Shown here: piece by piece, positions 24,031 through 55,600 of the stretch
How positions within the stretch are numbered: position 1 is the first letter of the stretch
Layout of the letters: every line of letters starts with the position of its first letter
Assembly: GCA_964658305.1 (NCBI GenBank)
Contig: OZ210884.1
Location: forward strand, 3,038,001-3,102,000
Origin: Leptogorgia sarmentosa
Lineage: Eukaryota
Length of the DNA: 64,000 nucleotides
Direction of reading: 5' to 3'
Translations under genes and position numbers: made by a program
Notes under the pieces: generated by a model
What the model saw: the letters and a program-made list of their open reading frames with translations, nothing else
Told to the model about the DNA's origin: nothing
Database searches by the model: none

Positions 24031-24310
24031 CCAGGTGATCTCGTATTCGTGTTTCAGCCAATCAGCGCTCAGAAAGGGTTGCCCGAATAGAAATCCATTT
24101 TGCTATATTCACACGATTATATCTTTCGTTATTCTGTACGAAACTACTTGAAATTTTGTAATTATGTTTGGTTATGAGAACTATAGTTCTGATAAAAATA
24201 TGGAATCGAAATAAAGTATATAAAGAGAGATATTCAGTTGTTTCGGTCGAAAAATGGATTTCTATTTGACAGCTAGTTCCAGTCCTTTTCCGTGTATCGA
24301 GATCACCTGG
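24031..24310. mobile_element. MITE with 13-bp TIRs inserted in a (TA)n tract
   Basis: ccaggtgatctcg ... cgagatcacctgg; the empty (TA)n site is in copy A at ~9356-9370. Confidence 0.85.
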
Positions 24311-27300: not shown

Positions 27301-27345
27301 ATATAGCCTCAGTACTGGTAGCCTTGGCCCTCTGTAGAACGTCTT

Positions 27346-28525: not shown

Positions 28526-28640
28526 AAACACATTTGGAAAAATAGGACATTGAAACGTTGACCTCTCGAACGCAATATTTTCCCATTTCCTGGAATTAGA
28601 CCATACTGATGATATCTTTCCTTCTGTTCTTTTGACGCAG

Positions 28641-31600
28641 ATGTTTCTTCAATGGAAGTTCGCGGCGATATCGATCATTGCAAGTTTGGCATTTTTCAAA
28701 GTTGAAGGTAATGAAGGGCACAATTATTTCATTGAATTAATTCTCTTTGCGCTTAGGTTATCTCAGTAATGTCAGGTGGTGCTAATAGTGTCATATTTTT
28801 TAACTTTTCTGTCAAAAATACGTCAAACAAGAGTTGTAATCTTCTGTCGACGTTTAGCATTTTCTCATCGCACAATTTCGTTATACAGGCTACGTATACC
28901 CTGGAGAGGAATACATCCTTTATTCCAATGCAACACATGTGTCATACGTCTCTGTGGAAGGAGGCGAATCCACTGTAATCCTGTCAGCAGAGAGTGCCAC
29001 CCTTGGATACGATGAAATAAATTATCGCCTGTGGTATCATGAATCTGTTAGCCTATCCCTCAATCAAACTGGTCTGGATGGAAGTGACTCAAAAACTGTG
29101 TCCGTTCCATCAACTTTCATTTCGTTTGCGGTTGATGAAGTAAACAAAACTATCTACTACGTGAACTACGTGAACAGCGGGGATGTAAGCGTTCAATCTA
29201 TTGATTACGATGGCGTCGCCCTTCCGGAGATTGCCGATTTGCAAAGCCATGATGATTATGAGGATATAGAAATTGACGCCCATAACAGGTAAGTGACAAT
29301 TGTTAAAGTACTGTAGTTATCCTATATTAAATGGGCAATAAGATGCAATGTTCGTCAAGTTTAGCTATCAAGAAAATTATGTGAATATATTTGAAAGAAA
29401 ACGTCATGTATTCAATCAACTGTTCATTAGTACATTAAACAACCACGCCCCTTTTAAACATATAACAATCATAAATAAATACATTAAACTATTAATGAAT
29501 CGTAGATACAGGTTGCTCAAAGTTTTTAAGGCAAACTATAATATGATTGGGTAAAGTGTGATATAAATCACCAATTAGTAAAATTGCGAAGTTTACTTGG
29601 GAAAACTGAAAGATCTATTATAGAATGAGCTGATAAAGCGACATCCACATTTTTTTAAATATCAAACTTTTTTTTACCTATTGCAATTCTGAATATCTTT
29701 GTACAATTCAATTATCTTCCATTCATAATATCAAATTTTTCAAAATGTATGGACGTCATTTAAATTATATGATAAATTTGAATTTTGAGAATTTCAGACC
29801 TGTACATCATCCGAAATGCCATTTTCGAGGTCTGAAATACATTGGAAAATTTTGCTGGAATACCGCTATATCAAGTAATTGTTTAAAGGCGAGCTTGTTT
29901 TGCTCTGCAAAAAGTGGAGAGTGAAGGGGCACTGCAGCCCAAAAGCCCCCTCTCTCGCCGGGCGAAATGATTTGTTAATAGGGGGTTGGAAAATGGTTGT
30001 ATATCGGTGGGAACCGTAGCTCACGAGACGTCATGTATCGCTATGCATATGTATTTCCAAATTTATAACAATAGTTGTCGTAGATTATAGGCTTGTCCAT
30101 AAATGAATTGCACTTTTTTACTGCCAAACAACAACTCTGTGTCGTCAAACAGCACCGAGATTTGCTAAAATGTGTGAATAGAATTGTTGAACAGATTTAG
30201 TGTTTTGTTTTGTTTTTCATGCATAATAAAATAAAGAAATGAACGAAGATTAACTGACTTAGCCACAATTTAATCAAGATTTCGCAAAGCTAAATGTCTT
30301 AATAAGCTATGCTCCGGCATTCCAAAGGGCATTTCTGACTTCTTCCCGCTGTGATTACGCAACGACGTTAATATATTGCCCAAACAGAAATCTAACCCCC
30401 CCCCCCCCCAATCGTCATTATAAGTGAAACTGAGCATGATACACCCAGGGATACACCTGAAAATTCAACACGATTAAAAAAACTCTATTAAAATATCATT
30501 TCAGATCGATATTCCTCACCACCGATCAATCGAGTTCGCGAAACCTCATCCGCTACAATCTTGCTGATAGTACAGAAGAAACTCTTCATGATTCTATCTC
30601 TGGGATAGGTACACACCTCACGGTTGATACCGAAAATAAATGGGTTTACTGGATTCTTTTTACCAGCGAAAACAACTACAAAATTTTCAAAACTACCTAT
30701 ACCGGACAAACATCACAGATTGGAACAGATCAAACAGGAAGTGTTGGTGATGTCGACATTGCCCAGGGAGATGGATACTTTTATATCCTTGATTCTGGCT
30801 CTTCAGAAATAAAAAAATATAACAAAACAACCGAAACAATGGTCAGCGCGATTTCTATTTCGCCTGGAGCACAACGAATTATTGTGGTCACAGGTAGGTA
30901 TTGATTTGTGTTGATGAAAACATATTTGAAATGAGAGATGGAAAAAATCGATCATATCACGCTTCGTTACAAATATCCGTGTACGATATCCGTGTAGTAT
31001 TAATTTAATAACAGCTATTTGTCTTCGGGAAGGAAGAAGTGGAACAGAGTAATTAATAATGAAATGATATTATAATTTCAAAAATCATTGATGTCTAACC
31101 AGGATTAGATTATTCCCAAGCTTTCGGCTACCTGTCTGTAGCCTTCGACGCGTGTATATTTATGATGATGTAAGAATGCAATAACTATATAATGCATGTA
31201 AATAGAAACCGTAACAAACAGCAACATACTGGTAGCCGAAATCTTGCGAATAATAAAATTAATGTATTAACCAGAGAATGGCAAATATTATAATTTTGTT
31301 TCGTATTTCCTTATGGTTCTTTCCGTGTACATTTTTGGAAAGTTGTTAATTTCTTTCTAGACCAGGACAATTGTGCGGTGAATAATACCTGCCCAGCTAA
31401 CTCAACCTGCGCAAATATTCCTGGCACCGTTGCGTGTTCTTGCGACACTGGATTTACTGGAAATCAGACATATTGCGAAGGTACGTGTTCCTACATGATA
31501 AAACCATCAATACTTAACGAGAGTATGAATTAAATTTATTTCGGACTCGGGATATTGATTGCACATTGTTCGTTGCGAGACGCGTAGCTAGCAGCATTAA

Positions 31601-34600
31601 CTGCGTCAGTGTCAACATTTCATTGAATATATTCGTGAAAAACTAGAAGAAATACTACAAATTACAAATGCATTCAAAAAATTCAATGCAAACACATAAG
31701 TCAAAAAGGTCAACGAAATGCCGTCGGTCGAAATGTGAACAAAATGGCCGCCGCACGCGTAGTTATATTCTACCTGAGAGCCTTGGCATGGGCCAAAGCT
31801 ATAAATTATTTCTCTTAATGTTACTTACGTACTTAATGTTACGCTAAGTATACACGTATAATGGCGACGTCACATTTTGCTCTAAGCAAAAAATTGCCTT
31901 TTCCATCTTTTACAGATATAAATGAATGTAATGATAGTCCATGTGGCTTTAATGCAAACTGTACCAACACCATTGGTTCGTTCAATTGCGAATGCCAAAC
32001 GGGATATGAGGGCAACGGTACAAACTGCACAGGTAGGTAATCGTCTGGCTTCGACTCTCTTGGCGGAGAATCAGTTTTCCCGTTCAATGTTTCTGGGGAT
32101 TTCGAGTAGTGTAAGGAACAGATACGATAACAACATAAACAAGCAACATGACTCTTCTTCACTACCTAAATGCTACAAAAGAATTAGCGTGATTTTGAAA
32201 ATTTTTCATTAACCATGAATACGGAAAAGATGACGGATGTATATAAACCCAGAATGCTCTGGGAGCATCAAATATAGTGCAATGACGTAAATTTTATTAA
32301 ACAAGAAATGTCTTCCTATCTGATGGCCCTCATTCAACAAAACCATAATAGCTACGTGCTTTTTAAAAACGACTTCAAACCCCAGTGCATTCTGAGAAAT
32401 GAATATCCGCCACCATTACTTTGATCGTGGATTGAAAAACACACAATTAATTTTAAATGGATGAATCTAACGCGGAATTTAATTGGCTCGTTTGGTAGTA
32501 AGTAGAAAGTTTCAGAAAGTCCGACAGTTCCATAAGTATGGTGTGGGGGACATATTCATATATTTGCGTTTTCCGCAATTATTTTTTTTTGAAATCAATT
32601 GTTTTTATGGTCTGTGAACACGAATATATGAATATGCTCGCCCAACTTATCGCGTCTGGAACTTTTGCTTCTGTTTCCATGCCGGTATGAGTTAAAGTTT
32701 CGTTTTGAATATCAAACTAAACTAGGCAGCGAATAAATTTCAACCTCGTGATCTTAAACTTAATAATATCTAGCGACCGGACACTCAAGATTGAAACGGC
32801 TCTCCCTAATAAACATGTATTTTTCAGATATCGATGAGTGCCAAAGTAGTCCCTGTGATGATAACGCAAGTTGTACTAACAGTAATGGTTCTTATACATG
32901 CAATTGCACTACGGGATATGAAGGAAATGGAACAGTTTGCACAGGTATTTAGAATAGTTTCTGTTGCATGACAAACAATTTGAAAAACGACTTTAAGTAA
33001 TTGTAGCATGCAGTCTTTTCTTCACACTTTCAAAATGATTTCCTCATTTTTACTTCCTATATTTCAAACAAACAAGAGTTTTGTTTTTGCCGAAATTATT
33101 AAGATTTGTCCTGAATGAGGATATCATGAATGCCTGAAAATATATCTTTGCACTTTTCAGTGTTTTAATTATTCCTGTATTAGTATAATAGCTGTTTGTG
33201 AATTAAAGTGCATGTTTGGGGGATCGAATTGCTAGATTAAGAACGCATAAGGCTTAAATAAGAACAATGATAATTATGATATTTGACACCTGTTATGGAA
33301 ACCGAGCGATGTGAATGGCAATTTGATTCTGGTAAAATTTTTTTTTTTTGAATAGACATCAACGAATGCGAAACAGAAGCTCCGTGCCACGTGAACGCTA
33401 CTTGTACAAGCACACCGGGATCGTATTATTGTACTTGTAAAACAAATTATAGTGGAGATGGCTTCTTTTGCGAACGTAAGTGTACAATAAACAGTGAAAA
33501 ATCTTGCAATTGTGTGTCTGCTTAATTAAATATATGCAGCCGAAAAAGCGTTAGCTTGGAATTCTGGGTAAAAATTATGTTTGAAAAACCTTTAAAACCT
33601 TTAGAAATTAGTACATAAAATATAATTTTTTTGTCGAAACATTATTCCTTCGACACAATAGAGGTAATTTCAGTCTGAAGACTAATAAAATACAGCAAAA
33701 AATGGCACCTTTCGCGGTTTTTTCATTTTGTTGTACGATCTAGCTAATTATTGTTGGCTGCTAAAAACAAAATCTTAATAATAATTAAACTATAGCCAAC
33801 AAAATACAGATAAACGCGATGATATAGCTACCGGCCACGAAAAAAAAAACAAGCCAGGTGAATAAGGAGAGTGAACTCCAAAAAATGGAAGTCCTAGCTA
33901 TCTTCATGAAAATGTTTTTCTTTCTTGTTTTGTCGAAAATTGAGGTGAAGCGAGAACCGTTTTTTAACTCGTCAAAAAGTCATATTGACTTTTCTTTTTG
34001 GTGTTCTCATTCATTTTTTCTTAATTCTTGCTAAATCAGTAGCAGAAATCCCAGAACATGTTCGCAAAAATACCATTATCAGGATATTAATGTGCATCCG
34101 GTATTTTGTAGAACTCACGTGCAAAGTCGATGCCATCTACTATGCAACATCTTCTCAGGTCAAAGGTGTTTTCTCTGATGGGAACTCAACAGTCACGATT
34201 CTATCAGGGAGCGACGTGAAACTAAATTACGATTACTCCAGCGAAAGGCTCATCTATTATGATGGGGATAATCTCATCAGCGTAAAACTGGATGGCAGTG
34301 CTCCGATAACGATTGCACCAGTCGCCTCCTTATTCCGGTTTGCAGTGGATCATATAACAAGAAAAGTCTACTATTTCACAGAGTTGTTTAGGGACATTCA
34401 TATCATTGATCTGGATATTGGGAATGCAAATAAAATTAATCGAAATCTTGGCAATGTTGAAGACCTGGATACTTATCCTAGTAATAGGTACGTCTGTAAT
34501 TGAATTAGAAATATTACGATTTTCTATGAAGGGATGGTAATTTTAGGAGGAAGTGAAACAAAATGCCGAAAAGGAACATTAACATATTGAGTTCAAAAAA

Positions 34601-37600
34601 ACTCCATTAATAAATTAAATGCTTATTTTACATGAATGTTTGAAATAACACATTTTGTAAACACTTTTCTCATGCTCACATGCCAAAGTGTGGCTATGAT
34701 ACAGGTATGGAAGAAACAACATCTTGATACAATGAAAGCCCTGTCAGGAGGAGACGATGTGGCTAAAAATGTTTTTATTGCTACTGCAGCACAAAAAATT
34801 TATAAATAATGGTCTATTTTCAAAATTTTTCCAAACGTTTAATAACAGTCACGTATATCAGAACATACGGTGACAAATGTTTTGCATCACAAAAAGATGT
34901 GAATAAAACGAACACTAAATCTGACACCATTACCAGAAACTTTAGACATGTTCGCCCTGACTTCTTGAATAAATTTACTGTACAAGTCAACAACAGTATC
35001 GTGAAAGTTATTATAATTTACATAGCGGAGACGTTCAAAAATTATAAATTCTCGCCATTCAATCATACATGATCGTTTGGTGCCCTCTTACTTGATTTCA
35101 TAATGAACAAGTTTTTATTGTCTCAAAAGTCAATACTGAACGCATTTAACAAGCCTAACGATTAGATTTGTGCAAATCACAATAAAGGGCGATCAATCCC
35201 AATAACCGTTATTGTTCAGAGCAGTTTAAATCCAAATTAATTCTAATCTGATCTTCCGGGTTAAAAAATTAGTACCTATGAATGCCCAGAGAACCAAAAA
35301 TTTCAGGTAGCATAAGCAACATCATATTCTAGACATCTCTGATATTAAATAATCGATTGTTATATTTTCTATTTTTAGCTCCCTTGTTTTTGCTGCAGCA
35401 AATTCTGGAGATATTGTTCGCTATTTTTTGGATAAAGACACACAAGAAGTGATTTTTAACAACAATTCGTCCCCAATGTGCTTATCTGTCGATAGTGAAT
35501 ACAATTCGATTTATTGGATTAACTTCATCCCTGCAAATGGCGGTTATTTCCTTATGAAATCTTTGTTTAATGGTTCTACCTCGCGGGTGAAATATTATCC
35601 AGGTCCTACAAGCTCAGTGAAAATTGCAATTGGTAAAGATGATTTCTACGTAATGGATAGTACTCGAGGTCGTATTGATAGATTTGACAGAAAAAATTCC
35701 ACTTTGGAAAATTCGTTTTATGTAAGCGACACACCTTCGGAACTAACAGTCGTTCAAGGTAAGACACAATTTAATGACATGAATCATAGATATTTTTTGC
35801 ACTGCGGTACTGCCATAACTTAATTAAAAATATTCTCCAATTTATGGCGTTTGAAACGTATTATGAAAGAATCTAAAGCCGTGCGAATTTTTTTGAAGTG
35901 CAGGATAAACAGGAACGATGGAATGAAACAAACAAAAACGAAATCATTTAAAGATGTCATAATATGCTTCTTGGCGTCGTATATTCTAGCTATTAATTCA
36001 TTTTCCTAGATTTGGATGAATGCTGTATTGGTGGTTATTGCCATGAAAATGCTACTTGTACAAACACGCCTGGGAGTTATTTTTGCACATGCAAGACTGG
36101 CTTTACCGGCAACAATACTGCTTGTGAAGGTTTGAAATTATTTCAATAATCATACTTACTTTTATATACATGCTCTCACAACAGGAGTTTCCTGTGTATA
36201 AAACTGTCTAACTTGCGATGGAAAATAACAGTATGTAAAACATATAATGAAGTTTTCATTCGTGCAATGGTAAAAATATTACCATGACGTGAAAGATGAA
36301 AGTTTCCATTCTTCCAAGCGTTAAGGAAACCTTTATGATCGCGGAATTCGCCCATTTTTCAGAACGGGGATTTCATAATTAAACACTGAGATTGAGATTC
36401 AATAAAAAACTACAATTGGAAGTAGAAATGGCGTTAAGATATGAGCTGATACGAAGTGATTTCTAATCTGGTGTAACACAATTTAACCATACATTTGGGT
36501 ATGAATTTGGAAAAGGAACACATGCCCAATCTCAGGATCATACATTGCCAAAAAAATTTTAAACATCATTTTAGATAATTTTATTAAATATGAGCTAATA
36601 CTGTGCAGGACATTTTGGCTAATAACCACACACCTTTTTTTTGGGAAATCTTGCACGTTTCACCCTGTTAACAGCCGACAACTTTGAAATAAGAGCATAA
36701 ACAATACAGCATTATAACAAAAACCATGACCTCAACACAAGATTAATCTAGTTTTCGATCTCTAGATACCAACGAATGTGTGTCAGATACACCATGTCAT
36801 CCTAACGCAACCTGCAACAACACAGAGGGATCTTACACCTGTTCATGCAATATTGGATACAGCGGTGATGGCGAATCTTGTGTTGGTAAGGGACAATCTA
36901 TACACTTTGTCTTCACAAAGTTCTTTGAAGAAACGAACGAACCTGCCTTGGCAAACTTTGACACAAAATAATACTCTATAATTTTCAGTTACAATACACA
37001 GAAAAACTAATAAGTATTACCATTAGCGTAAACAAGAAGTAAAATTGGTTAAGTCTTCTGAATAATCGGGCTATACTCAGCTAGTCTTCATCAATAATTG
37101 TACTGCCTCTTTTGTTAACGATTTCTTTTTCGCGAGGCATCGATTCAAGCAATTAACGTTTGTCATGCTTCAGATGAGAATAAAAGTTCCAATAACACAC
37201 ACAATTGTCACTACGTATATATATATACAATGCTAATTGCACAAACACAAATGGATCATTCACATGTGCTTGCAGCAATGGCTTTGGTGGGATGGTGTAA
37301 ATTGTATAGGTAGTAAACATGAATTTATTCCCGGAACAAATTATTCCTAAAGTTGTGAATAATCCCATACAATATTTTATTTTAATATGCGATCCCGAGG
37401 GTCATTTTTCGATCTTCTCTCTTTTTTCAATTCACTCTTTTAAAATTCGTCGCCCATTAGTCCCACACCGAATTCATTGGGGAAATTTTCCAAAATTGAC
37501 AATGTCTCTATTTGCTGTTGCAGATATTAACGAATGTACAACTAACACACATAATTGCCACGGCAATGCTAATTGTACAAACACAAATGGATCATTTACA

Positions 37601-40600
37601 TGTGAATGTTGGAATGGATTTACTGGGGATGGTGAAAATTGTACAGGTAGATGTAATCAATTCACTCTTTTCAAATTCGACACAACTTCGTCACCCCACG
37701 GAATGCATTTGAGGAATTTTCCAAAATTGACAATGTCTCTATTTGCTGTTGCAGATATTAACGAATGTACAACTAACACACATAATTGCCACGACAATGC
37801 TAATTGTACAAACACAAATGGATCATTTACATGTGAATGTTGGAATGGATTTACTGGGGATGGTGAAAATTGTACAGGTAGATGTAATTAATTCACTCTA
37901 ATAAAATTCGTCGCAATTTCGTCACCACACAGAATTAATTGGGGGAATTTTCCAAAATTGACAATGTCTGTTTTTCCTGTTGCAGATATTAACGAATGTA
38001 CAACTAACACACACAATTGCCACGACAATGCTAATTGTACAAACACAAATGGATCATTTACATGTGAATGTTGGAATGGATTTACTGGGGATGGTGAAAA
38101 TTGTACAGGTAGATGTAATCAATTCACTCTTTTACAATTCGACGCAACTTCGTCGCCCCACGGAATGCATTTGAGGAATTTTCCAAAATTGACAATGTCT
38201 CTTTTTCTGTTGCAGATATCAACGAATGTACAACTAACACACACAATTGCCACGACAATGCTAATTGTACAAACACAAATGGATCATTTACATGTGAATG
38301 TTGGAATGGATTTACTGGGGATGGTGAAAATTGTACAGGTAGATGTAATAAATTCACTCTTAAAAATTCGGCGCATCTTCGTCACCACACCGAATTCATT
38401 GGGGATTTTGCAAATTGACACTGCCTCTTTTTGCTGTTCCAGATATTAACGAATGTACAAACAACACGCACAATTGTCACCACAATGCAAATTGTACAAA
38501 CACAAATGGATCATTTACATGTGAATGTTGGAATGGATTTACTGGGGATGGTGAAAATTGTACAGGTATATATAATGTACAAATTTTCAGAATAAATTAT
38601 TGCAAACATGGCAACCAGTTTTCTAACTGGATCAAAAACTTGTGACTAATCCCATAGATATTTTATTTCATTATGCCATCCGAAGAGTCATGTTTCGATC
38701 TTCTCTTTTTTTTCAATTCACTTTTTTAAAATTCGTCCCAAAACCGTCACCCCCCCAAATTCAATGGGGGAATTTGCGAAAATTGACATTGTCTCTTTTT
38801 GCTGTTCTAGATATTAACGAATGTACAACTAACACACACAATTGCCACGACAATGCTAATTGTACCAACACAAATGGATCATTTACATGTGAATGTTGGA
38901 ATGGATTTACTGGGGATGGTGAAAATTGTACAGGTAGATGTAATCAATTCACTCTTTAAAATTCGACGCAACTTCGTCACCACACCGAATTCATCAGGGG
39001 AATTTGGCAAAATTGACAATGTCTCTTTTTGCTGTTGCAGATATTAACGAATGTACAACTAACACACACAATTGCCACGACAATGCTAATTGTACAAACA
39101 CAAATGGATCATTTACATGCGAATGTTGGAATGGATTTACTGGGGATGGTGAAAATTGTACAGGTAGATGTAATCAATTCACTCTTTTCAAATTCGACGC
39201 AACTTCGTCACCCCACGGAATGCATTTGAGGAATTTTCCAAAATTGACAATGTCTCTATTTGCTGTTGCAGATATTAACGAATGTACAACTAACACACAT
39301 AATTGCCACGACAATGCTAATTGTACAAACACAAACGGATCATTTACATGTGAATGTTGGAATGGATTTACTGGGGATGGTGAAAATTGTAGAGGTAGAT
39401 GTAATTAATTCACTCTAATAAAATTCGTCGCAACTTCGTCACAACACAGAATTCATTGGGGGAATTTTCCAAAATTGACAATGTCTCTTTTTGCTGTTGC
39501 AGATATTAACGAATGTACAACTAACACACACAATTGCCACGACAATGCTAATTGTACAAACACAAATGGATCCTTTACATGTGAATGTTGGAATGGATTT
39601 ACTGGGGATGGTGAAAATTGTACAGGTAGATGTAATCAATTTACTCTTTAAATTTCGATGCAACTTTGTCACCACACCCAATTCATTGGGGGAATCTGCC
39701 AAAATTGGCAATGTTCCTTTTTGCTGTTGCAGATATTAACGAATGTACAACTAATACGCACAATTGCCACGACAATGCAAATTGTACAAACACAAATGGA
39801 TCATTTACATGTGAATGTTGGAATGGATTTACTGGGGATGGTGAAAATTGTACAGGTAGACGAAATTAATTCACTTTAATAAAAATCGTCGCAACTTCGT
39901 CACCACACAGAATTAATTGGGGGAATTTTCCAAAATTGACAATGTCTGTTTTTCCTGTTGCAGATATTAACGAATGTACAACTAACACACACAATTGCCA
40001 CGACAATGCTAATTGTACAAACACAAATGGAACATTTACATGTGAATGTTGGAATGGATTTACTGGGGATGGTGAAAATTGTACAGGTAGATGTAATCAA
40101 TTGACTCTTTTACAATTCGACGCAACTTGGTCCCCCCAGCGAATTCATTGGGGGAATTTGCCTAAATTGACAATATCTCTTTTTCTGTTGCAGATATTAA
40201 CGAATGTACATCTAACACACACAATTGCCACGACAATGCTAATTGTACAAACACAAATGGATCATTTACATGTGAATGTTGGAATGGATTTACTGAGGAT
40301 GGTGAAAATTGTACAGGTAGATGTAATAAATTCACTCTTAAAAATTCGGCGCATCTTCGTCACCACACCAAATTCATTGGGGGATTTTGCAAATTGACAA
40401 TGCCTCTTTTTTCTGTTCCAGATATTAACGAATGTACAAACAACACGCACAATTGTCACGACAATGCAAATTGTACAAACACAAATGGATCATTTACATG
40501 TGAATGTTGGAATGGATTTACTGGGAATGGTGAAAATTGTACAGGTATATATAATGTACAAATTTTCAGAATAAATTATTGCAAACATGGCGACCAGTTT

Positions 40601-43600
40601 TCTAACTGGATCAAAAACTTGTGACTAATCCCATAGATATTTTATTTTATTATGCCATCCGAAGAGTCATGTTTCAATCATCTTTTTTTTTCAATTCACT
40701 TTTTCAAAATTCGTCCCAAAACCGTCACCCCACCGAATTCAATGGGGGAATTTGCGAAAATTGACATTGTCTCTTTTTGCTGTTCCAGATATTAACGAAT
40801 GTACAACTAACACACACAATTGCCACGACAATGCTAATTGTACAAACACAAATGGATCATTTACATGTGAATGTTGGATTGGATTTACTGGGGATGGTGA
40901 AAATTGTACAGGTAGATGTAATGAATTCACTCTTTAAAATTCGACGCAACTTCGTCACCACACCGAATTCATCGGGGGAATTTGGCAAGGTTAACAATGT
41001 TTCTTTTTGCTGTTGCAGATATTAACGAATGTACAAATAACACACACAATTGCCACGACAATGCTAATTGTACAAACACAAATGGATCATTTACATGTGA
41101 ATGTTTGAATGGATTTACTGGGGATGGTGAAAATTGTACAGGTACTTGTAATCAATTGACTCTTTGACAATACGACGCAACTTCGTCACCTCACCGAATT
41201 CACGGGGGAATTTGCCAAAATTGACAATGTTTCTTTTTGCTGTTGTAGATATTAACGAATGTTCAACTAACACACACAATTGCCACGACAATGCAAATTG
41301 TACAAACACAAATAGATCATTTACATGTGAATGTTGGAATGGATTTACTGGGGATGGTGAAAATTGTACAGGTAGATGTAATCAATTCACTCTTTAAATT
41401 TCGACGCAACTTTGTCACCACACCCAATTCATTGGGGGAATCTGCCAAAATTGGCAATGTTCCTTTTTGCTGTTGCAGATATTAACGAATGTACAACTAA
41501 TACGCACAATTGCCACGACAATGCAAATTGTACAAACACAAATGGATCATTTACATGTGAATGTTGGAATGGATTTACTGGGGATGGTGAAAATTGCACA
41601 GGTACATGTAATCATTTGACTCTTTGACAATTCGACGCAACTTCGTCACCACACCGAATTCATGGGGGAATTTGCCAAAATTGACAATATCTCTTCTTGC
41701 TGTTGCAGATATTAACGAATGTACAACTAACACACACAATTGCCACGACAATGCAAATTGTACAAACACAAATGGATCATTTACATGTGAATGTTGGAAT
41801 GGATTTTCTGGGGATGGTGAAAATTGCACAGGTACATGTAATCGTTTGACTCTTTGACAATTCGACACAACTTCGTCACCACACCGAATTCATGGGGGAA
41901 TTTGCCAAAATTGACAATATCTCTTCTTGCTGTTGCAGATATTAACGAATGTACAACTAACACACACAATTGCCACGACAATGCTAATTGTACAAACACA
42001 AATGGATCATTTACATGTGAATGTAGGAATGGATTTACTGGGGATGGTGAAAATTGTACAGGTAGATGTAATCAATTCACTCTTTCAATTTCGACGCAAC
42101 TTTGTCACCCTACCCAATTCATTGAGGGAATCTGCCAAAATTGGCAATGTTCCTTTTTGCTGTTGCAGATATTAACGAATGTACAACTAATACGCACAAT
42201 TGCCACGACAATGCAAATTGTACAAACACAAATGGATCATTTACATGTGAATGTTGGAATGGATTTACAGGGGATGGTGAAAATTGCACAGGTACATGTA
42301 ATCATTTGACTCTTTGACAATTCGACACAACTTCGTCACCACACCGAATTCATGGGGGAATTTGCCAAAATTGACAATATCTCTTGCTGTTGCAGATATT
42401 AACGAATGTACAACTAACACACACAATTGCCACGACAATGCTAATTGTACAAACACAAATGGATCATTTACATGTGAATGTTGGAATGGATTTTCTGGGA
42501 ATAGTGAAAATTGCACAGGTAGATGTAATCAATTCACTCTTTAAAATTCGACACAACTTCGCCACCACACCGAATTCATGGGGGAATTTGCCAAAATTGA
42601 CAATGTCTCTTTTTGCTGTTGCAGATATTAACGAATGTACAACTAACACACACAATTGCCACGACAATGCAAATTGTACAAACACAAATGGATCATTTAC
42701 ATGTGAATGTTGGAATGGATTTACTGGGGATGGTGAAAATTGTACAGGTATATATAATGAAAAAGTTTTCAGAATAAATTATTGCAAACATTATGACCAA
42801 TTTTCGAACAGGATCAAAAAGTTATGACTAATCCCATAGCATATTTTTTTTATTATGCCATCGCGAGAGTCATCTTACGATCTTCTGTTTTTTTCTATTT
42901 TCCCTTCTAAAATCCGTTCCAACACCGTCATCCCACCGAATTCAATGGAGGAATTAACCAAAATTGTCAATGTCTCTTTTTGCTGTTGCAGATATTAACG
43001 AATGTACAAATAACGCACACAATTGCCACGACTATGCTAATTGTACAAACACAAATGGATCATTTACATGTGATTGTTGGAATGGTTTTACTGGGGATGG
43101 TGAAAATTGTACAGGTAGACGTAATCAATTCACTCTTTTAAAAGCGACGCAACTGCGTCACCCCACCGAATGCATTGGTGGAATTTGCCAAAATTGACAA
43201 TGTCTCTTTTTGCTGTTGCAGATATTAACGAATGTACAACTAACACACACAATTGCCACGACAATGCTAATTGTACAAACTCAAATGGATCTTTTACATG
43301 TGAATGTTGGATTGGATTTACTGGGGATGGCGAAAATTGTACAGGTAGATGTGATCAATTCACTCTTTTAAAATTCGACGGAACTGCGTCAACCCACCGA
43401 ATGGATTGGCGGGATTTGCCATAATTGACAATGTCTCTTGTTGCTGTTGCAGAAATTAATGAATGTACAACTAACACACACAATTGCCACGACAATGCTA
43501 ATTGTACAAACACAAATGGATCATTTACATGTGAATGTTTGAATGGATTTACTGGGGATGGTGAAAATTGTACAGTTAGATGTAATCAATTCACTCTTTT

Positions 43601-46600
43601 CAAATCCGACGCAACTTCGTCACCCCTCCGAATGCATTGGGGGAATTTTAAAAAATTGACAATGTCTCTTTTTGCTGTTGCAGATATTAACGAATGTACA
43701 GCTAGCACACACAATTGCCACGGCAATGCAAATTGTACAAACACAAATGGATCATTTACATGTGAATGTTGGAATGGATTTACTGGGGATGGTGAAAATT
43801 GTACAGGTAAGTTTAATGAACAAATATTCAGAATAAATTATTGCAAACAATATGACCACTTTTCAAAGTGGATTAAAAAGTTGTGACTAATCCCATAGCA
43901 TATTTTATTTTATTATGCCATCTCGAGAGTCATCTTTCGATCTTCTCTTGTTTTTTTCAATTCACTCTTTTAAAATTCGTCGCAACATCGTCATCCCGCC
44001 GATTTAATTAAGGGAATTTGCCAAAATTGACAATGTCAATTCTTGCTGTTGCAGATATTAACGAATGTACAACTAACACTCACAATTGCCACGACAATGC
44101 CAATTGTACAAACACAAATGGATCATACACATGTGAATGTAGGAATGGATTTACTTGGGATAGTGAAAATTGTACAGGTACATGTAATCAACTCACACTC
44201 TTAAAATTCGACGCAACTTCGTCACCACACCGAATTCATTGGGGTAAATTGCCAAAATTGACAATGTCTCTTTTTGCTGTTCCAGATATTAACGAATGTA
44301 TAACTAATACACACAATTGCCACGACAATGCTAATTGTACCAACACAAATGGATCGTTTACATGTGAATGTTGGAATGGATTTACAGGAGATGGTGAAAA
44401 TTGTACAGGTAATCAATTCACTCTTTAAAATTAAATGCAACTTCGTCATCACACCGAATTCATTGGGGAAATTTACCAAAATTAACAATGTCTCTTTTTG
44501 CTGTTCCAGATATTAACGAATGTTCAACTAACACACACAATTGCCACGACAATGCTAATTGTACAAACACAAATGGAACATACACATGTGAATGTTGGAA
44601 TGGATTTACTGGGGATGGTGAAAATTGTACAGGTAGATGTAATCAATTGACTCTTTTACAATTCGACGCAACTTCGTCCCCCCAGCGAATTCATTGGGGG
44701 AATTTGCCTAAATTGACAATATCTCTTTTTCTGTTGCAGATATTAACGAATGTACATCTAACACACACAATTGCAACGACAATGCTAATTGTACAAACAC
44801 AAATGGATCATTTACATGTGAATGTTGGAATGGATTTACTGGGGATGGTAAAAATTGTACTGGTAATGAATTCACTATTTAAAGTTCGACGCAACTTCGT
44901 CACCACACCGAATTCATTTGTGGAATTTGCCAAAATTGACAATGTCTGTTTTTGCTGTTCCAGATATTAACGAATGTACAACTAACACACACAATTGCCA
45001 CGACAATGCTAATTGTACAAACATAAATGGATCATTTGCATGTGAATGTTGGAATGGTTTTACTGGGGATGGTGAAAATTGTACAGGTATATGTTATCAA
45101 TTCACTCTTTTAAAATTCGTCACCACTTCGTGACCACACCTAATTCATTGGAGGAATTTGTGAAAATTGACAATGTCTCTTTTTGCTGTTGCAGATATTA
45201 ATGAATGTACAACTAACACACACAATTGCCACGACAATGCTAATTGTACAAACACAAATGGATCTTTTATATGTGAATGTTGGATTGGATTTAATGGGGA
45301 TGGCGAAAATTGTACAGGTAGAAGTAATCAATTCACTCTTTTAAAATTCGACGCAACTGCGTTACCCCATCGAATGTATTGGCGGAATTTGCCATAATTG
45401 ACATTGTCTCTTGTTGCTGTTGCTGTTGCAGATATTAACGAATGTACAACTAACTCACAGAATTGCCACCACAATGCTAATTGTACAAACACAAATGGAT
45501 CATTTACATGTGAATGTTGGAATGGTTTTACTGGGGATGGTGAAAATTGTACAGGTGTATACAATGAACAAATTTTCAGAATAAATTATGGCAAACATTA
45601 TGACCACTTTTCGAACTGGATCAAAAAGTTATGACTAATCCCATAGCATATTTTTTTTATAATGCTATCCCGAGAGTCATCTTACGATCTTCTTTTTTTT
45701 TCAATTCACTCTTCTAAAATCCGTTCCAACACCGTCACCCCACCGAATTCGATGGAGGAATTAACCAAAATTGACAATGTCTCTTTTTGCTGTTGCAGAT
45801 ATTAACGAATGTACAAATAACACACACAATTGCCACGACAATGCTAATTGTACAAACACAAATGGATCATTTACATGTGAATGTTGGAATGGTTTTACTG
45901 GGGATGGTGAAAATTGTACAGGTAAACGTAATAAAATTCAATCTTTTAAAAGTCGACGCAACTGCGTCAGCCCACCGAATGCATTGGGGGAATTCGCCAA
46001 AATTGACAATGTCTCTTCTTGCTGTTGCAGATATTAACGAATGTACAACTAACACACACAATTGCCACGACAATGCTAATTGTACAAACACAAATGGATC
46101 TTTTACATGTGAATGTTGGAAGGGATTTACTGGGGATGGCGAAAATTGTACAGGTAGATGTAATCAATTCACTGTTTTAAAATTCGTCGCCACTGGTTCA
46201 CCCCACCGAATGCATTGGCGGAATTTGCCATAATTGACAATGTCTCTTGTTGTTGTTGCAGATATTAACGAATGTAGAACTAACACACACAATTGCCACG
46301 ACAATGCTAATTGTACAAACACAAATGGATCATTTACCTGTGAATGCTGGAATGGATTTACTGGGGATGGTGAAAATTGTACAGGTAGATGTAACCAATT
46401 CACTCTTTTCAAATTTGACGCAACTTCGTCATCCCACTGAATGCATTGGGGGAATTTGCCAAAATTGACAATGTCTCTTTTTGCTGTTGCAGATATTAAC
46501 GAATGTACAACTAACACACACAATTGCCACGGCAATGCTAATTGTACAAACACAAATGGATCATTCAGATGTGAATGCTGGAATGGATTCACTGGGGATG

Positions 46601-49600
46601 GTGAAAATTGTACAGGTAGATGTAATCAATTCACTCTTTTCAAATTAGACACAACTTCGTCACCCCACCAAATGCATCGGGGGAATTTTACAAAATTGAC
46701 AATGTCTCTTTTTGCTGTTGCAGATATTAACGAATGTACAGCTAACACACACAATTGCCACGACAATGCAAATTGTACAAACACAAATGGATCATTTACA
46801 TGTGAATGTTTCAATGGATTTACTGGGGATGGTGAAAATTGTACAGGTATATTTAATGAAATAATATTCAGAATAAATTATTGCAAACATTATGACCACT
46901 TTTCAAAGTGGATAAAATAGTTGTGACTAATCCCATAGCATATTTTACTTTATTATGCCATCTCGAGAGTCATCTTTCGATCTTCTCTTTTTTTTTCAAT
47001 TCACTTTTTTAAAATTCGTCGCAACATCGTCATCCCGCCGAATTAATTAAGGGAATTTGCAAAAATTGACAATGTCAATTCTTGCTGTTGCAGATATTAA
47101 CGAATGTACAACTAACACACACAATTGCCACGACAATGCTAATTGTACAAACATTTATGGATCTTTTACATGTGAATGTTGGAATGGATTTAATGGGGAT
47201 GGCGAAAATTGTACAGGTAGAAGTAATCAATTCACTCTTTTAAAATTCGACGAAACTGCGTTACCCCACCGAATGTATTGGCGGAATTTGCCATAATTGA
47301 CATTGTCTCTTGTTGCTGTTGCAGATATTAACGAATGTACAACTAACACGCACAATTGCCACAACAATGCTAATTGTACAAACACAAATGGATCATTTAC
47401 ATGTGAATGTTGGAATGGTTTTTCTGGGGATGGTGAAAATTGTACAGGTAGATGTAATCAATTAACTCTTTTAAAATTCGTCGCAACTTTGTGACCACAC
47501 CGAATTCATTGGAGGTTTTGCGAAAATTGACAATGCAACTTTTTGCTGTTGTAGATATTAACGAATGTAGAACTAACACACACAATTGCCCCGACGATGC
47601 TAATTGTACAAACACAAATGGATCATTTACATGTGAATGTAGGAATGGTTTTACTTGGGAAGGTGAAAATTGTACAGGTACATGTAATCAACTCACACTC
47701 TTAAAATTCGACGCAACTTCGTCACCACACCGAATTCATTGAGGGAAATTGCCAAAATTGACAATGTCTCTTTTTGCTGTTCCAGATATTAACGAATGTA
47801 CAACCAATACACACAATTGCCACGACAATGCTAATTGTACCAACACAAATGGATCGTTTACATGTGAATGTTGGAATGGATTTACTGGAGATGGTGAAAA
47901 TTGTACAGGTAATCAATTCACTCTTTAAAATTCAATGCAACTTCGTCACCACACGGAATTCATTGTGGAAATTTGCCAAAATTAACAATGTCTCTTTTTG
48001 CTATTCCAGATATTAACGAATGTACAACTAACACACACAATTGCCACGACAATGCTAATTGTAGAAACACAAATGGATCATACACGTGTGAATGTTGGAA
48101 TGGATTTACTGGGGATGGCGAAAATTGTACAGGTAGATGTAATCAATTCACTCTTTCAAAATTCGACGCAACTTGGTCACCTCACCAAATTAATTGGGGC
48201 AATTTGCCAAAATTGACAATGTCTCTTTTTGCTGTTGCAGATATTAACGAATGTACAACTAACACACACAATTGCCACGACAATGCTAATTGTACAAACA
48301 CAAATGGATCATTTACATGTGAATGTTGGAATGGATTTACTGGAGATGGTGAAAATTGTACAGGTAATCAATTCACTCTTTAAAATTCAATGCAACTTCG
48401 TCACCACACCGAATTCATTGAGGAAATTTGCCAAAATTAACAATGTCTCTTTTTGCTGTTCCAGATATTAACGAATGTACAACTAACACACACAATTGCC
48501 ACGACAATGCTAATTGTACAAACACAAATGGATCATACACATGTGAATGTTGGAATGGATTTACTGGGGAAGGCGAAAATTGTACAGGTACATGTAATCA
48601 ATTCACTCTTTTAAAATTCGACGCAACTTGGTCACCTCACCAAATTCATTGGGGCAATTTGCCAAAATTGACAATGTTTCTTTTTGCTGTTGCAGATATT
48701 AACGAATGTACAACTAACACACACAATTGCCACGACAATGCTAATTGTACAAACACATATGGATCATTTACATGTGAATGTTGGAATGGATTTACTGGTA
48801 ATGGCGAAAATTGTACAGGTAATCAATTCACTCTTTAAAGTTCGACGCAACTTTGTCACCACACGGAATTCATTTGTGGAATTTGCCAAAATTGACAATG
48901 TCTCTTTTTGCTGTTCCAGATATTAACGAATGTACAACTAACACACACAATTGCGACGACAATGCCAATTGTACAAACACAAATGGATCATACACATGTG
49001 AATGTTGGAATGGATTTACTGGGGATGGTGAAAATTGTAGAGGTAGATGTTATCAATTCACTCTTTTAAAATTCGTCGCCACTTTGTGACCACCCCTAAT
49101 TCCTTGGAGGATTTTGCGAAAATTGACAATGTCCTTTTTGCTGTTGTAGATATTAACGAATGTAGAACTAACACACACAATTGCCCCGACGATGCTAATT
49201 GTACAAACACAAATGGATCATTTACATGTGAATGTGGGAATGGATTCACTTGGGATGGTGAAAATTGTACAGGTACATGTAATCAACTCACACTCTTAAA
49301 GTTCGACGCAACTTCGTCACCACACCGAATTCATTGGGGGAAATTGCCAAAATTGACAATGTCTCTTTTTGCTGTTCCAGATTTTAACGAATGTGCAACT
49401 GATACACACAATTGCCACGACAATGCTAATTGTACAAACACAAATGGATCGTTTACATGTGAATGTTGGAATGGATTTACTGGAGATGGTGAAAATTGTA
49501 CAGGTAATCAATTCACTCTTTAAAATTCAATGCAACTTCGTCACCACACGGAATTCATTGTGGAAATTTGCCAAAATTAACAATGTCTCTTTTTGCTATT

Positions 49601-52600
49601 CCAGATATTAACGAATGTACAACTAACACACAAAATTGCCACTACAATGCTATTTGTACAAACACAAATGGATCGTTTACATGTGAATGTTGGAATGGAC
49701 TTACTGGAGATGGTGAAAATTGTACAGGTAATCAATTCACTCTTTAAAATTCAATGCAACTTCGTCACCACACCGAATTCATTGGGCAATTTGCCAAAAT
49801 TGACAATGTCTCTTTTTGCTGTTGCAGATATTAACGAATGTACAACTAACACACACAATTGCCACGACAATGCTAATTGTACAAACACAAATGGATCGTT
49901 TACATGTGAATGTTGGAATGGATTTACTGGAGATGGTGAAAATTGTACAGGTAATCAATTCACTCTTTAAAATTCAATGCAACTTCGTCACCACACCGAA
50001 TTCATTGAGGAAATTTGCCAAAATTAACAATGTCTCTTTTTGCTGTTCCAGATATTAACGAATGTACAACTAACACACACAATTGCCACGACAATGCTAA
50101 TTGTACAAACACAAATGGATCATACACATGTGAATGTTGGAATGGATTTACTGGGGAAGGCGAAAATTGTACAGGTACATGTAATCAATTCACTCTTTTA
50201 AAATTCGACGCAACTTGGTCACCTCACCAAATTCATTGGGGCAATTTGCCGAAATTGACAAAGTCTCTTTTTGCTGTTGCAGATATTAACGAATGTACAG
50301 CTAACACACACAATTGCCACGACAATGCAAATTGTACAAACACAAACGGATCATTTATATGTGAATGTTGGCATGGATTTGCTGGGGATGGTGCAAATTG
50401 TACAGGTAGGTGAAATGAAATGCAAGGATAATCTCATTACTTAAACGATAAAACAGATTCGACGTTTCGACCGAAGGGACTTCGTCGGGAATTAGCTTCC
50501 TATGTTTGGGACATTTAGCCTAATGCTGATACGCAAATTGCACAACACCTTCATGGTGTTGTTGACAGAATTGTGCATCAAACAGACGGTCATTGTCAAG
50601 TAGCTATTTTGTCGTCTTTCAAATAATCCAGGGCATTCTCTTTACAACTGTTTAAAGACTGTTTCGTACAATGATTAGCATTTACATATTAGCAGGAAAG
50701 GAACACCTTTAGGCTTCACAACTGTTAAGCTGCACCCTAGAAACGTTAAGAAAATTTATTCCGGCCATTTCGTCCATCACTTCGTTTTCGCACTGAATTC
50801 ATTTATGGAATTAGTCGTATGTTGCAAAGTCTTATTTTTACTGTTGCAGATGCGAATGAATGTTCAAATAACACACAAATGCCATGAGAATGCTACATGT
50901 ACAAACACAATTGGAGCTTATACATTCGGATGTAGGGAAGGCTTTTTGCAGCAGTGTGCGGAATTTTACAATATTTGACCGCGGTCCGGAAATATAGGAT
51001 ATTACACGGTTGCGAGAAGATATGGATTTTATGTTCGAGTGGCAAGAACACGAGAACGTAAAATCCATATCTTCGAGCGAACCGTGTAATGTTCTGTTTA
51101 TTATATGGACTTATTCAGAGTCACACAAATACACAACAACTACCCTTTTAATGAAAACATACAGTCTAAAACACAACAATTAATGGCTTTAAATTAGTCT
51201 TTACTAAATATAGATTATAAAATACCATTTTATTGTAGCTTTATTGTTCGTCGCAAAACGTACTAATATCGTCTTCGCTTAAATTCACAAACCTTGAAGT
51301 AGAAGTTATTTGTAAACAGCGAAAAAGGCGGGAATGTTATGTCACCCCTAAGCGCGACATACGAAAAATACGCGCACCGTATCCCAGATGTAGTGGCGTA
51401 TGAGTTCTACGAGTGTTTTAGTTCCCAAAAAAATACCGCTATCCATATAATAATCCTAAATACGTACTGGCCGAAGCAAATAAAAAATCTTTTGGCTGTT
51501 TGTTTTAATGGCAAAAAAATGCAATATATATAGGAAACTTGCAATTTATCTTAACTTAAATTCATCCTTTTTTGAAAAATTAGTATAACCAGTTGGTATA
51601 CATAAGTTTAAGGTTAATTTCCCTTTATTATTTTTAGAAATAATTTTTAGTACGTCGAAATATTTGGCTGTCGTATTAAAACATATCTTAACCATGTTTC
51701 TATCGCGAAATGAAAAGGAAGATAAATAAAATGAACAAATTTGCCTTTTCTGGTTGTCATGTTGAGTGAAAAACAGGAGTTATAACAAATCGGAAGGGTT
51801 TTTTCTACTTGGCCTTGGCTTTTTTTTGGCAGCCATACTTGGGATGGAGTAGCGGAGTAAACAAACACAATTGATTTCAAATCTAGTTCGCTACACTGGA
51901 AATTATTATGAATTTGATAATAGCATTGCGCAGTTAAAAATAAATCCGTTATTTACCGTTTAGGTCGGTCAGGATATAAAAATATTTTATCTCGGTCTAA
52001 AAAACATCCCTCAACCTTCGGCCTCTGGCCGTTTTTGAGACCTCGACAGCCAGTAAATAGCATATATATCTTTCTGGTTGTCTCTTTATCTTACTGATGT
52101 TAAAGAGTTTGATATTCTGCTTTAGTGTACTGTAAAACTGTTAGAAGATGATTAGTATTTAGCAACAGTAACACCTTCTTCAGTCTTCTGAATATAGCTA
52201 GGGTGAGCTGACATAAAACGAAATTATGTTCTCCACTTCGTGGACGACTTCGCCCATATGTGGCATCAATAAAAGAATTTAGGCGTAAGTTTTGAAGTAA
52301 ATTTTTTATTTTATTTTAAAGATGTGGATGAGTGTGGCAGTGACACACACAACTGTCATGATAATGCTACATGTACGAACACTGAAGGATCATTTACATG
52401 TGCTTGCAAAAATGGCTTTTCTGGGAATGGTATAAACTGTGTAGGTTGGTGGAGTAAATTGACTTTTAAAATATATCTTTCCAAATTTATGGGGGTGCAT
52501 AGTGAAAAACAGTAGTTATACCAAATCGGAAGGGTTTTCTCCACTTCGCCTTGGCTTTTAGGCAGCCATGCATACTTGCGATTGAGTAACAAAGTAAACA

Positions 52601-55600
52601 AACACAATTGATCCCAAATCTAGTTCGCTACACTAGAAATTTTTATGAATTTGATTATAGCATTGCCCAGCAAAAATATAAATCCGTTATTTACCGTTTA
52701 GGCCGATCCGGATATAAAAATATTTTGTCTCGGTCTCAAAAACTTCCCTCGGCCTTCGGCCACTAGCCGTTTTTGACACTTCGACAAAATATTTTTTCAA
52801 CCGGACCTCCCAGCCAGTAAATAGCATATATATCTTTCTGGTTGTCTCTTTTTCTTACTGATGTTAAAGAGATTGATATTCTGCTTTAATGTACAGTAAA
52901 CTGTTAGAAGATGATTTATTTAGTATTTACCAGCAGTAAACCTTCTTCAGTCTTATGAATATAGCCAGGGTGAGCTGAGATAAAACGAAATTATTTTCTC
53001 CACTTCGTTGACGACTTCGCCCATATGTGGCATCAATAAAAGAATTTAGGCGTACGTTTTGAAGTATCCTTTTTCTATTTTAAAGATGTGGATGAGTGTG
53101 GCAGCAACACACACAACTGCCATGATAATGCTACATGTACGAACACTGAAGGATCATTTACATGTACATGTAAAATTGGCTTTTCTGGGAATGGTATAAA
53201 CTGTGTAGGTTGGTGGAGCAAATTGACTTTTAAAATTTATCTTTCCAAATTTATGGGAGTGCATAGAGAATAACAGTTATAGTTATACCAAATCGGAAGG
53301 GTTTTTTCCACTTCGCCTTGTCTTAATTTTGGCAGCCATGCATATTTGCGATTGAGTAACAAAGTAAACAAACACAATTGATCCCAAATCTAGTTCGCTA
53401 CACTGGAAATTGTTATCAATTTGATTATAGCATTGCGCAGCAAAAAAATAAATCCGTTATTTACCGTTTAGGCCGATCCGGATATAAAAATATTTTGACT
53501 CGGTCTTAAAAACTTCCCTCGGTCTTCGGCCTCTGGCCGTTTTTGACACTTCGACAAAATGTTTTTTTAACCGGATCTCGCAGTCCGTAAATAGCATATA
53601 TATCTCTCTGGTTGTTTCTTTATCTTACTGATGTTAAAGAGTTTGATATTCTGCTTTCTGTAAAACTGCTAGAAGATGATTTATTTAGTATTTATCAACA
53701 GTAAACCTTCTTCAGTCTTATGAATATAGCTAGGGTGAACTGAGATAAAACGAAATTATATTCTCCACTTCGTGGACGACTTCCTCCATATGTAGCATCA
53801 ATAAAAGAATTTAGGCGTAAGTTTGAAGTATCTTTTTTCTATTTTAAAGATGTGGATGAGTGTGGCAGTGACACACACAACTGTCATGATAATGCTACAT
53901 GTACGAACACTGAAGGATCATTTACATGTGCATGTAAAATTGGTTTTTCTGGGAATGGTATAAACTGTGTAGGTTGGTGGAATAAATTGACTTTTAAAAT
54001 ATATCTTTCCAAATTTATTGGGGTGCATAGTGAAAAACAGAAGTTATACCAAATCGGAAGGGTTTTTCCACTTCGCCTTGGATTTTTGGCAGCCATGCAT
54101 ACTTGCAATTGAGTAACAAAATAAACAAACACAAATAATCCCAAATCTGGTCCGCTACACTGGAAATTGTTATGAATTTGATTATAGCATTGCGCAGCAA
54201 ATCCGTTATTTACCGTTTAGGCCGGTCCGTACTGGAAAATATTTTGTCTCGGTCTCAAAAACGTCCCTCGGCCTTCGGCCTCGTGCGTTTTTGAGACCTC
54301 GACAAAATATTTTCCAGTACGGACCTCCCAGCCGGTAAATAACATATATATCTTTCTGGTTGTCTCTTTATCTTACTGATGTTAAAGAGATTGATATTCT
54401 GCTTTAGTGTTCTGTAAAACTCTTAGAAGATGATTAGTATTTAGCAACAGTAAGACCTTCGTCAGTCTTATGAATATAGCTAGGGTGAGCTGACATAAAA
54501 CGAAATTATTTTCTCCACTTCGAGGACGACTTCGCCCATATGTGGCATCAATAAAAGAATTTAGGTGTAAGTTTTCAAGTATCTTTTTTCTATTTTAAAG
54601 ATGTGGATGAGTGTGGCAGTGACACACACAACTGTCATGATAATGCTACATGTACGAACACTGAAGGATCATTTACATGTGCATGTAAAATTGGCTTTTC
54701 TGGAAATGGTATAAACTGTGTAGGTTGGTGGAATAAATTGACTTTTGAAATATATCTTTCCAAATTTATTGGGGTGCATAGTGAAAAACAGTAGTGATAC
54801 CAAATCGGAAGGGTTTTTTCCACTTCGCCTTAATTGGCCTTTTTGGCGGCAATGCATACTTGCGATTGAGTAACAAAGTAAACAAACACAATTGATCCCA
54901 AATCTAGTTCGCTACACTAGAAATTGTTATGAATTTGATTATAGCATTGCCCAGCAAAAATATAAATCCGTTATTTATCGTTTAGGTCTGCCCGGATATA
55001 AAAATATTTTATCTCGGTCTCAAAAACTTCCCTCGGTCTTCGGTCTCTCGCCGTTTTTGACACTTCGACAAAATATTTTTTCAACCGGACCTCCCAGCCA
55101 GTAAATAGCATATACTGTATATCTTTCTGGTTGTCTCTTTATCTTACTGATGTTAAAGAGATTGATATTCTGCTTTCTGTAAAACTGTTAGAAGATGATT
55201 TATTTAGTATTTATCAACAGTATACTTTCTTCAGTCTTCTGAATATAGCTAGGGTGAGCTGAGATAAAACGAAATTATTTTCTCCACTTCGTGGACGACT
55301 TCGGCCATATGTGGCATAAATAAAATAATTTAGGCGTAAGTTTTGAAGTATCTTTTTTCTATTTTAAAGATGTGGATGAGTGTGGCAGTGACACACACAA
55401 CTGTCATGATAATGTTACATGTGCGAACACTGAAGGATCATTTTTATGTTTATGTAAAATTGGCTTTTCTGGGAATGGTATAAACTGTGTAGGTTGGTGG
55501 AGTAAATTGACTTTTAAAATATAACTTTCCAAATTTATGGGGGTGCATTGTGAAAAACAGTAGTTATACCAAATCGAAAGGGCTTTTTCTACTTCTCCTT

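Follow-up and report, generated by a model that had tools for sequence, protein, structure and literature searches.

The question raised by this locus is whether its 53 near-identical exons are joined into one very long protein or serve as alternatives to one another. The exons (array A) lie at 37524 to 50405 on the forward strand of a 64,000-nucleotide window of the genome of the octocoral Leptogorgia sarmentosa (assembly GCA_964658305.1, contig OZ210884.1, positions 3,038,001 to 3,102,000; all positions below are those of the window), and each encodes one calcium-binding EGF (cbEGF) domain. The original prediction, made from the letters alone, had offered two readings, a long constitutive stalk of ~2,170 amino acids or a Dscam-like cassette pool. 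In this study, the exons were found to be constrained, expressed and spliced, which fits the stalk; the pool was contradicted by the exon-to-exon joints in RNA, by the ratio of non-synonymous to synonymous differences and by the 92% identity of the copies, as described below. We put at roughly 70% the probability that the 53 exons are a transcribed coding tandem repeat, spliced exon to exon, that forms a largely constitutive long spacer.

To locate the copies, copy 1 was compared with the window without gaps. Fifty-nine related exons of 123 nt were detected, namely the 53 of array A, which match copy 1 at 114 to 123 of the 123 bases, and six more distant ones downstream (array B). An AG acceptor precedes all 53 exons of array A and a GT donor follows 52; each exon is in phase 1-1 and encodes an EGF of 41 residues in which the six Cys never vary. 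None of the 53 copies contained an indel or a stop or lacked a Cys. Of the 52 introns, 46 were 100-114 nt and six were 244-248 nt long, and Tandem Repeats Finder reported array A as a 231-bp repeat broken up by the longer introns. These counts agree exactly with those predicted: 53 copies, each with an acceptor and all but one with a donor, in phase 1-1, free of indels, stops and Cys losses, and separated by introns of ~100-114 nt or, in some cases, ~245 nt. The substitutions listed there at the W, HD and TG positions were also all found among the copies (W30 to L, R, F or G; variants of H13-D14; G35 to W or E). At the nucleotide level, 52 of the 53 exon sequences were distinct. They encode 40 distinct peptides, one of which is common to 13 copies, with a mean pairwise amino-acid identity of 92%; hence copies differ from one another mainly by single changes that are each rare.

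Subsequently, selection on the exons was examined by comparing the 84 distinct variant alleles among the 53 copies with 20,000 neutral draws. Synonymous alleles were in excess (29 of 84 against 17.7 expected, P 0.00035), whereas Cys-removing alleles (9.4 expected) and stop alleles (3.1 expected) were absent; none of the 20,000 draws had both at zero. The pairwise proportions of synonymous (pS) and non-synonymous (pN) differences were 0.141 and 0.035, respectively, giving a pN/pS of 0.25 (bootstrap 95% confidence interval 0.15-0.42), or 0.30 when Cys codons were left out. The divergence of the short introns (0.137) was equal to pS, indicating that each exon was duplicated along with its intron and that silent sites drift neutrally. 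About a dozen gap patterns were observed in the short introns, and none in the exons. The array exons are thus under purifying selection, with no sign of diversifying selection. Indeed, it had been proposed that they are constrained rather than satellite-like, with exon against intron divergence and dN/dS as the check, and both comparisons bear this out.

Expression was examined in 16 sequencing runs, none of which is catalogued as RNA; four of them (X8, X9 and X10, which proved to be RNA, and X1, DNA) were aligned to 28500-37700, a region that takes in the 5' part of the gene and copy 1 of the array. The runs consist of assembled contigs matched at 88% likeness, and X8-X10 come from one study. 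The three RNA runs cover mainly exons, joined at GT..AG introns, and hence represent spliced RNA. The joints 29288>30505, 32944>33356 and 33475>34112 were confirmed in all three, and in X9 position 36885 was joined to 37524, a broken array-type copy in between being skipped. Furthermore, the end of an array exon was joined to the start of an array exon (back 123) in X8, X9 and X10 alike, whereas DNA run X1 showed the 231-bp unit in place of this joint, at very high summed depth. These joints exclude both a choice of one exon from 53 and a silent array, unless the contigs are wholly paralogous. Absence of transcripts had been named beforehand as a sign that the array is silent; spliced array exons were present in 3/3 RNA runs.

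The summed contig depth of the array exon relative to single-copy sites was 140-201 in X8, 66-117 in X9, 237-459 in X10 and 245-376 in the DNA run, although such a ratio is not a copy number, being distorted by contig simplification, 3' bias and paralogues. In a unitig simulation, the ratio was 366 when all 53 copies were included, 177 for 25 copies, 72 for 10 and 6 for one. The depth ratios thus give a rough hint of many copies per transcript. Intron read-through as a normal product was ruled out by the RNA joints and by the introns themselves, since 42 of the 52, if retained, would bring in a stop or disrupt the frame. The other 10 (within 37647-50282) keep the frame and contain no stop, and gene-calling programs therefore run straight through them; the European Nucleotide Archive (ENA) open reading frames P0030 and P0045 are examples.

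One copy departs from the regular splice pattern. At the donor position of exon 25 (43453-43575), TT is found instead of GT. A GTAATC donor lies 6 nt downstream of the exon end and keeps the frame, and a donor of this type is used by seven other copies; 13 types of donor hexamer occur in array A. The intron after exon 25 is 108 nt long and in frame, with no stop. Judging from these letters, exon 25 could be skipped, its intron could be retained, or the +6 donor could be used, each of which would preserve the frame.

The array was then placed in a gene model whose exons were chosen from sequence and whose ends were snapped to the nearest AG or GT. The model comprises 78 exons and 3,511 amino acids so far, without a stop, from the ATG at 28641 to 63701, and continues past the window end (Table 1). 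Its domain order is signal peptide, propeller, four EGFs, propeller, 62 consecutive EGFs (2 + 53 + 6 + 1), SEA-like domain, EGF and SEA-like domain, with 67 EGFs in total. Every EGF exon, repeated or not, is symmetric in phase 1-1; accordingly, symmetry in the array is no sign of skipping. The array EGF passed Pfam EGF_CA (40 bits, cut-off 27) and EGF_3. When scored against the cbEGF consensus (six Cys plus D-x-D/N-E ... N ... F/Y), all 53 copies matched the relaxed form and 51 the strict form. In the 2,172 amino acids of array A, 157 N-glycosylation sequons were counted, about three per EGF, and three sequons are each kept in 51/53 copies. The two SEA-like domains gave partial Pfam SEA matches below the cut-off (E 3.7e-5 and 0.003), and the second contains a cleavage-like motif of the GSV type. 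A Bac_thur_toxin match (E 0.016, below cut-off) was judged to be due to chance. No transmembrane segment was found in the 3,511 amino acids within the window, beyond which the gene runs on. The EGF after propeller 2 (36010-36129) has an extra Cys (CC), and a lone Cys stands at the propeller start; both are conserved in octocoral homologues and may form a closing disulfide.

From these results, the following arrangement is proposed. The spacer would sit between the two N-terminal propellers and the C-terminal SEA-like domains, with most copies probably included in most transcripts. Tandem cbEGF domains are stiffened by calcium, as established for fibrillin, and the same would apply here, with up to three predicted N-glycans on each domain. 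An EGF domain is 2.5-3 nm long; the 62 consecutive EGFs could therefore form a rod of roughly 150-190 nm if extended. Such a rod might hold the propeller heads away from the cell surface or a matrix anchor, with the SEA-like domains perhaps near the membrane. The array would have grown by unequal crossing-over, and its copy number would be expected to drift between alleles as in LPA KIV-2.

The history of the array was examined with the exon plus its upstream intron as the unit. Multi-unit block duplications were observed, for example units 41-45 with 48-52, 5-7 with 13-15 and 17-19 with 20-22, and duplicated blocks occurred at lags of 2, 3, 6, 7, 8, 9, 11, 14 and 23. Exon and intron were thus amplified together in multi-unit blocks. 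In the four-gamete test, 56 of 378 informative site pairs showed all four combinations. The similarity of units was independent of the distance between them (Mantel rho -0.01), which rules out a simple stepwise growth model. Only one of 1,378 unit pairs was within 1% of each other, which argues against assembly duplication. Taken together, array A is a coding tandem repeat homogenised within the gene, introns included, with signs of recombination (LPA KIV-2/VERL type), and this pattern suggests that it likely grew by repeated unequal crossing-over and conversion. Array units were also found in ENA assemblies (n=10); the six Cys were kept in all, and eight differed from every window copy, which shows sequence variation only. 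Array B was, judging by its divergence, homogenised separately from array A; five of its six exons use a GTTGGT donor. The broken copy at 37174-37309 is present in DNA run X1 as an allele with 2 bases fewer in a TA insertion at 37216.

Several points weigh against a largely constitutive spacer. The depth ratio could be inflated by 3' bias or paralogues, and none of the contigs, which were placed on one array copy (28500-37700), was seen to run across several identified copies. As the three RNA runs share one study and the 88% likeness, and some contigs were ~10% diverged, paralogues may contribute. With the donor of exon 25 lost, at least one copy is not canonically spliceable. The constraint outside Cys is only moderate, with 55 distinct amino-acid-changing alleles, mostly singletons or in one to three copies. 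Any membrane anchor would lie beyond the window end, as the C-terminus does, and the AlphaFold propeller model, built from a 5-sequence alignment, had a mean confidence (pLDDT) of 37 and was unusable.

A mutually exclusive pool of the Dscam type, in which each transcript would take one exon of the 53 to diversify a recognition surface, is suggested by the near-identical tandem exons with their own splice sites and by the 40 distinct peptides among the 53 copies. It is nevertheless hardly credible: the array-to-array joints in 3/3 RNA runs contradict it unless they come wholly from a paralogue, the depth ratio was at least 66 against about 6 expected, and the copies, 92% identical and under purifying selection, are all symmetric, so that nothing forces exclusivity. 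Near-identical unit arrays are hard to assemble, and a short repeat over-expanded by the assembly was therefore considered as well. This explanation is very improbable, given the distinctness of 52/53 exon sequences, the single unit pair within 1%, the selection signal carried by the copy variants, the very high summed depth of the 231-bp unit in X1 and the array units in independent ENA assemblies. Possible, although we lean away from it, is a length-tunable stalk, in which many copies are included and stochastic or regulated in-frame skipping spreads isoform lengths per tissue or individual. Its array exons are all symmetric, exon 25 has no canonical donor, the donors are of 13 hexamer types, and the RNA depth ratios of X8 and X9 (66-201) lie below the DNA ratio (245-376). 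Precedents are dumpy transcripts that lack exons (PMC2930355) and oyster bindin, which has 1-5 repeats by splicing (PMC5712786). However, symmetry extends to every EGF exon whether repeated or not, silent sites are no more conserved than introns, the X10 ratio (237-459) fits full inclusion, and exon 25 has the in-frame cryptic donor 6 nt downstream.

Two further readings concern what the length is for. Under neutral runaway amplification, frame-keeping units are tolerated, selection removes broken copies only, and the length has no function. The recent, recombining units, the broken copies at both edges, the many singleton amino-acid changes and the segmental duplication of neighbouring DNA are consistent with this. 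Against it stand the non-Cys pN/pS of 0.30, the retention of calcium ligands and sequons, and a relative (P0005, below) in which another EGF was expanded at the corresponding site. We consider it unlikely, yet it bears on why the array is long and is compatible with a constitutive spacer. Less probable still is a ruler, in which copy number per colony and in-frame skipping would tune the stalk length, giving each colony or gamete a private distance of the propeller heads in a dense N-glycan brush for colony self/non-self or gamete recognition. If true, this would be an allele- and isoform-variable surface recognition protein in octocorals; no molecule of the colony or gamete recognition kind was identified in octocorals in the literature searched.

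The mechanism is of a known kind. Human LPA KIV-2 is a 5.6-kb coding unit whose count sets protein length, with over 40 isoforms, and single copies of it conceal splice variants (PMC9700027; PMC11462820). Array A differs in having a cbEGF instead of a kringle and a unit of 231 bp, and copy-number variation is proven for LPA. The arrays of abalone VERL, which is polymorphic in array length (PMC2704960), and of the Drosophila dumpy PIGSFEAST repeats (PMC2930355) are intragenic, belong to large extracellular glycoproteins and were homogenised by unequal crossing-over or conversion. Both resemble array A as homogenised intragenic arrays and differ from it in domain type; moreover, the dumpy repeats are in one large exon, whereas each copy of array A is its own exon with an intron. 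Fibrillin and LTBP share the cbEGF consensus with calcium ligands and one domain per phase 1-1 exon. Membership of that family was rejected, however, as no TB (8-Cys) exon was present among the 78 modelled within the window (3,511 amino acids), and the present gene differs further by its 62 consecutive EGFs, 92% identical copies and about three sequons per domain. LDLR/LRP and pro-EGF resemble the present model, with its putative propellers, in that a propeller is followed by EGFs, and LDLR class B look-alikes were found for the propeller region. They differ from this model, which has no LDL-A repeats, whose propeller misses PF00058 and in which SEA-like domains follow; by the membership tests, it is not an LRP. 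Mucin-like SEA-EGF proteins carry a Pro/Thr/Ser-rich O-glycosylated repeat, which is absent here, the repeat being a Cys-bonded EGF with N-linked sequons. Dscam1, oyster bindin and sponge aggregation factors, the last with 154/155 introns in phase 1 (PMC5400394), are likewise putative surface proteins whose domains are encoded by exons in tandem, and bindin and the aggregation factors are precedents for the splicing idea of the original prediction. In array A, by contrast, the exons are not mutually exclusive, positive selection is absent and the copies vary little in sequence.

Relatives were sought with the second propeller exon as the query. Five proteins among 181 candidates matched at 61-73% identity, all from Paramuricea clavata or Dendronephthya gigantea, an octocoral-only distribution (5/5 matches) that rests on one word-based search. 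The same propeller-EGF head is present in D. gigantea XP_028416438.1 (P0001, 'pro-epidermal growth factor-like') and XP_028406424.1 (P0005, 'cubilin-like') and in P. clavata P0002-P0004. In contrast to the present gene, these models are short and automatically named and have neither the 53-copy array nor SEA domains. The gene model was 62% identical to P0001 over its first 765 amino acids. Propeller 1 was 31-32% identical to the homologues of propeller 2. The propeller region gave no Pfam PF00058 match; with P0003, a propeller 2 homologue, LDLR class B look-alikes were retrieved from the ESM Atlas (28/30 matches in the PF00058 set, score 0.93), together with a weak LRP4 match (E 0.004). In P0005, seven 99%-identical EGF pieces follow the same propeller-EGF module at the matching place. 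Its EGF unit is of another type, with 20/37 residues common to the array A unit, and the model looks truncated. Units thus differ more between species than within the gene, in a comparison with one species in which P0005 may be either paralogue or orthologue. Among 37 EGF-rich matches of at most 2,000 amino acids, four (three Ciona, one Amphiura) had 5-7 units at least 80% alike, a count that the EGF-unit pattern used makes too low. A search with the last SEA exon returned one identical ENA open reading frame and nothing else, and protein and DNA-pattern scans of JGI metagenomes gave no matches. P. clavata P0002 is fused after the EGF to retroelement-like sequence, probably by a gene-prediction error.

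Concerted evolution of coding repeats is itself already well known. The present locus adds an undescribed octocoral protein layout (propeller-EGF-SEA) in which the cbEGF array is unusual for its length and uniformity, in an expressed giant extracellular protein whose propeller-EGF head was found in octocorals only. No description of the gene was found in the literature searched, nor in passages on the octocoral skeleton proteomes (PMC7853314, PMC11959691) or the Nematostella matrisome (PMC12549020), the supplements of which could list it. The long EGF spacer was apparently rebuilt from different units in different species, and arrays of this kind escape gene models built from short reads. With their diagnostic bases, the 231-bp units offer an easy long-read system for the splicing of dozens of near-identical exons, and the same array suits tests of coding copy-number variation in corals.

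Table 1. Positions of the modelled exons, arrays and broken copies in the window.
Feature	Position	Strand	Basis
Exon 1, start codon and predicted signal peptide	28641..28707	+	ATG, hydrophobic N-terminus; RNA contig joins it to exon 2
Exons 2-3 (28889-29288, 30505-30893), propeller 1, LDLR class B/YWTD-like	28889..30893	+	GT..AG joint in 3/3 RNA runs; octocoral alignment
Four single-copy EGF exons (31361-31480, 31916-32032, 32828-32944, 33356-33475)	31361..33475	+	joints 32944>33356 and 33475>34112 in 3/3 RNA runs
Exons 8-9 (34112-34487, 35379-35758), propeller 2	34112..35758	+	octocoral identity 61-73%; spliced in RNA
Two single-copy EGF exons ahead of the array (36010-36129, 36766-36885)	36010..36885	+	joint 36885>37524 in one RNA run
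Broken array-type exon lacking the first Cys, with a 14-nt insertion and a 1-nt deletion	37174..37309	+	alignment to array consensus; skipped in X9 contig
Array A, 53 phase 1-1 cbEGF exons of 123 nt, ~231-bp units, six longer introns	37524..50405	+	
Array exon 25, GT to TT donor	43453..43575	+	in-frame GTAATC 6 nt downstream
Broken array-type exon with a stop and a 2-nt deletion, donor absent	50850..50960	+	
Array B, 6 cbEGF exons, ~760-bp units	52322..56226	+	6% nucleotide difference within B, 29% to array A
EGF exon (57216-57335) and SEA-like domain 1 (57597-57712, 59529-59596, 59876-60030)	57216..60030	+	open frame; partial Pfam SEA
EGF exon (61559-61693) and SEA-like domain 2 (61958-62070, 62664-62731, 63526-63701)	61559..63701	+	partial Pfam SEA; GSV-type motif

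Outside the array, a segmental duplication was observed between 7735-15118 and 22507-31174, at 87-95% identity. The duplicated segment holds a second copy of exons 1-3 (~12501-14861) with 87-93% amino-acid identity, and no EGF exons were found after it before 28500; this copy is a truncated or stand-alone propeller paralogue. The RNA depth of exons 2-3 was several times that of later exons. A high-copy short repeat element lies in an intron at 32577-32637, where very high depth and many loose ends were observed in both the DNA and the RNA runs. A neighbouring gene on the minus strand contains an exon for an Ig-like domain with W and Y-x-C motifs (1323-1646).

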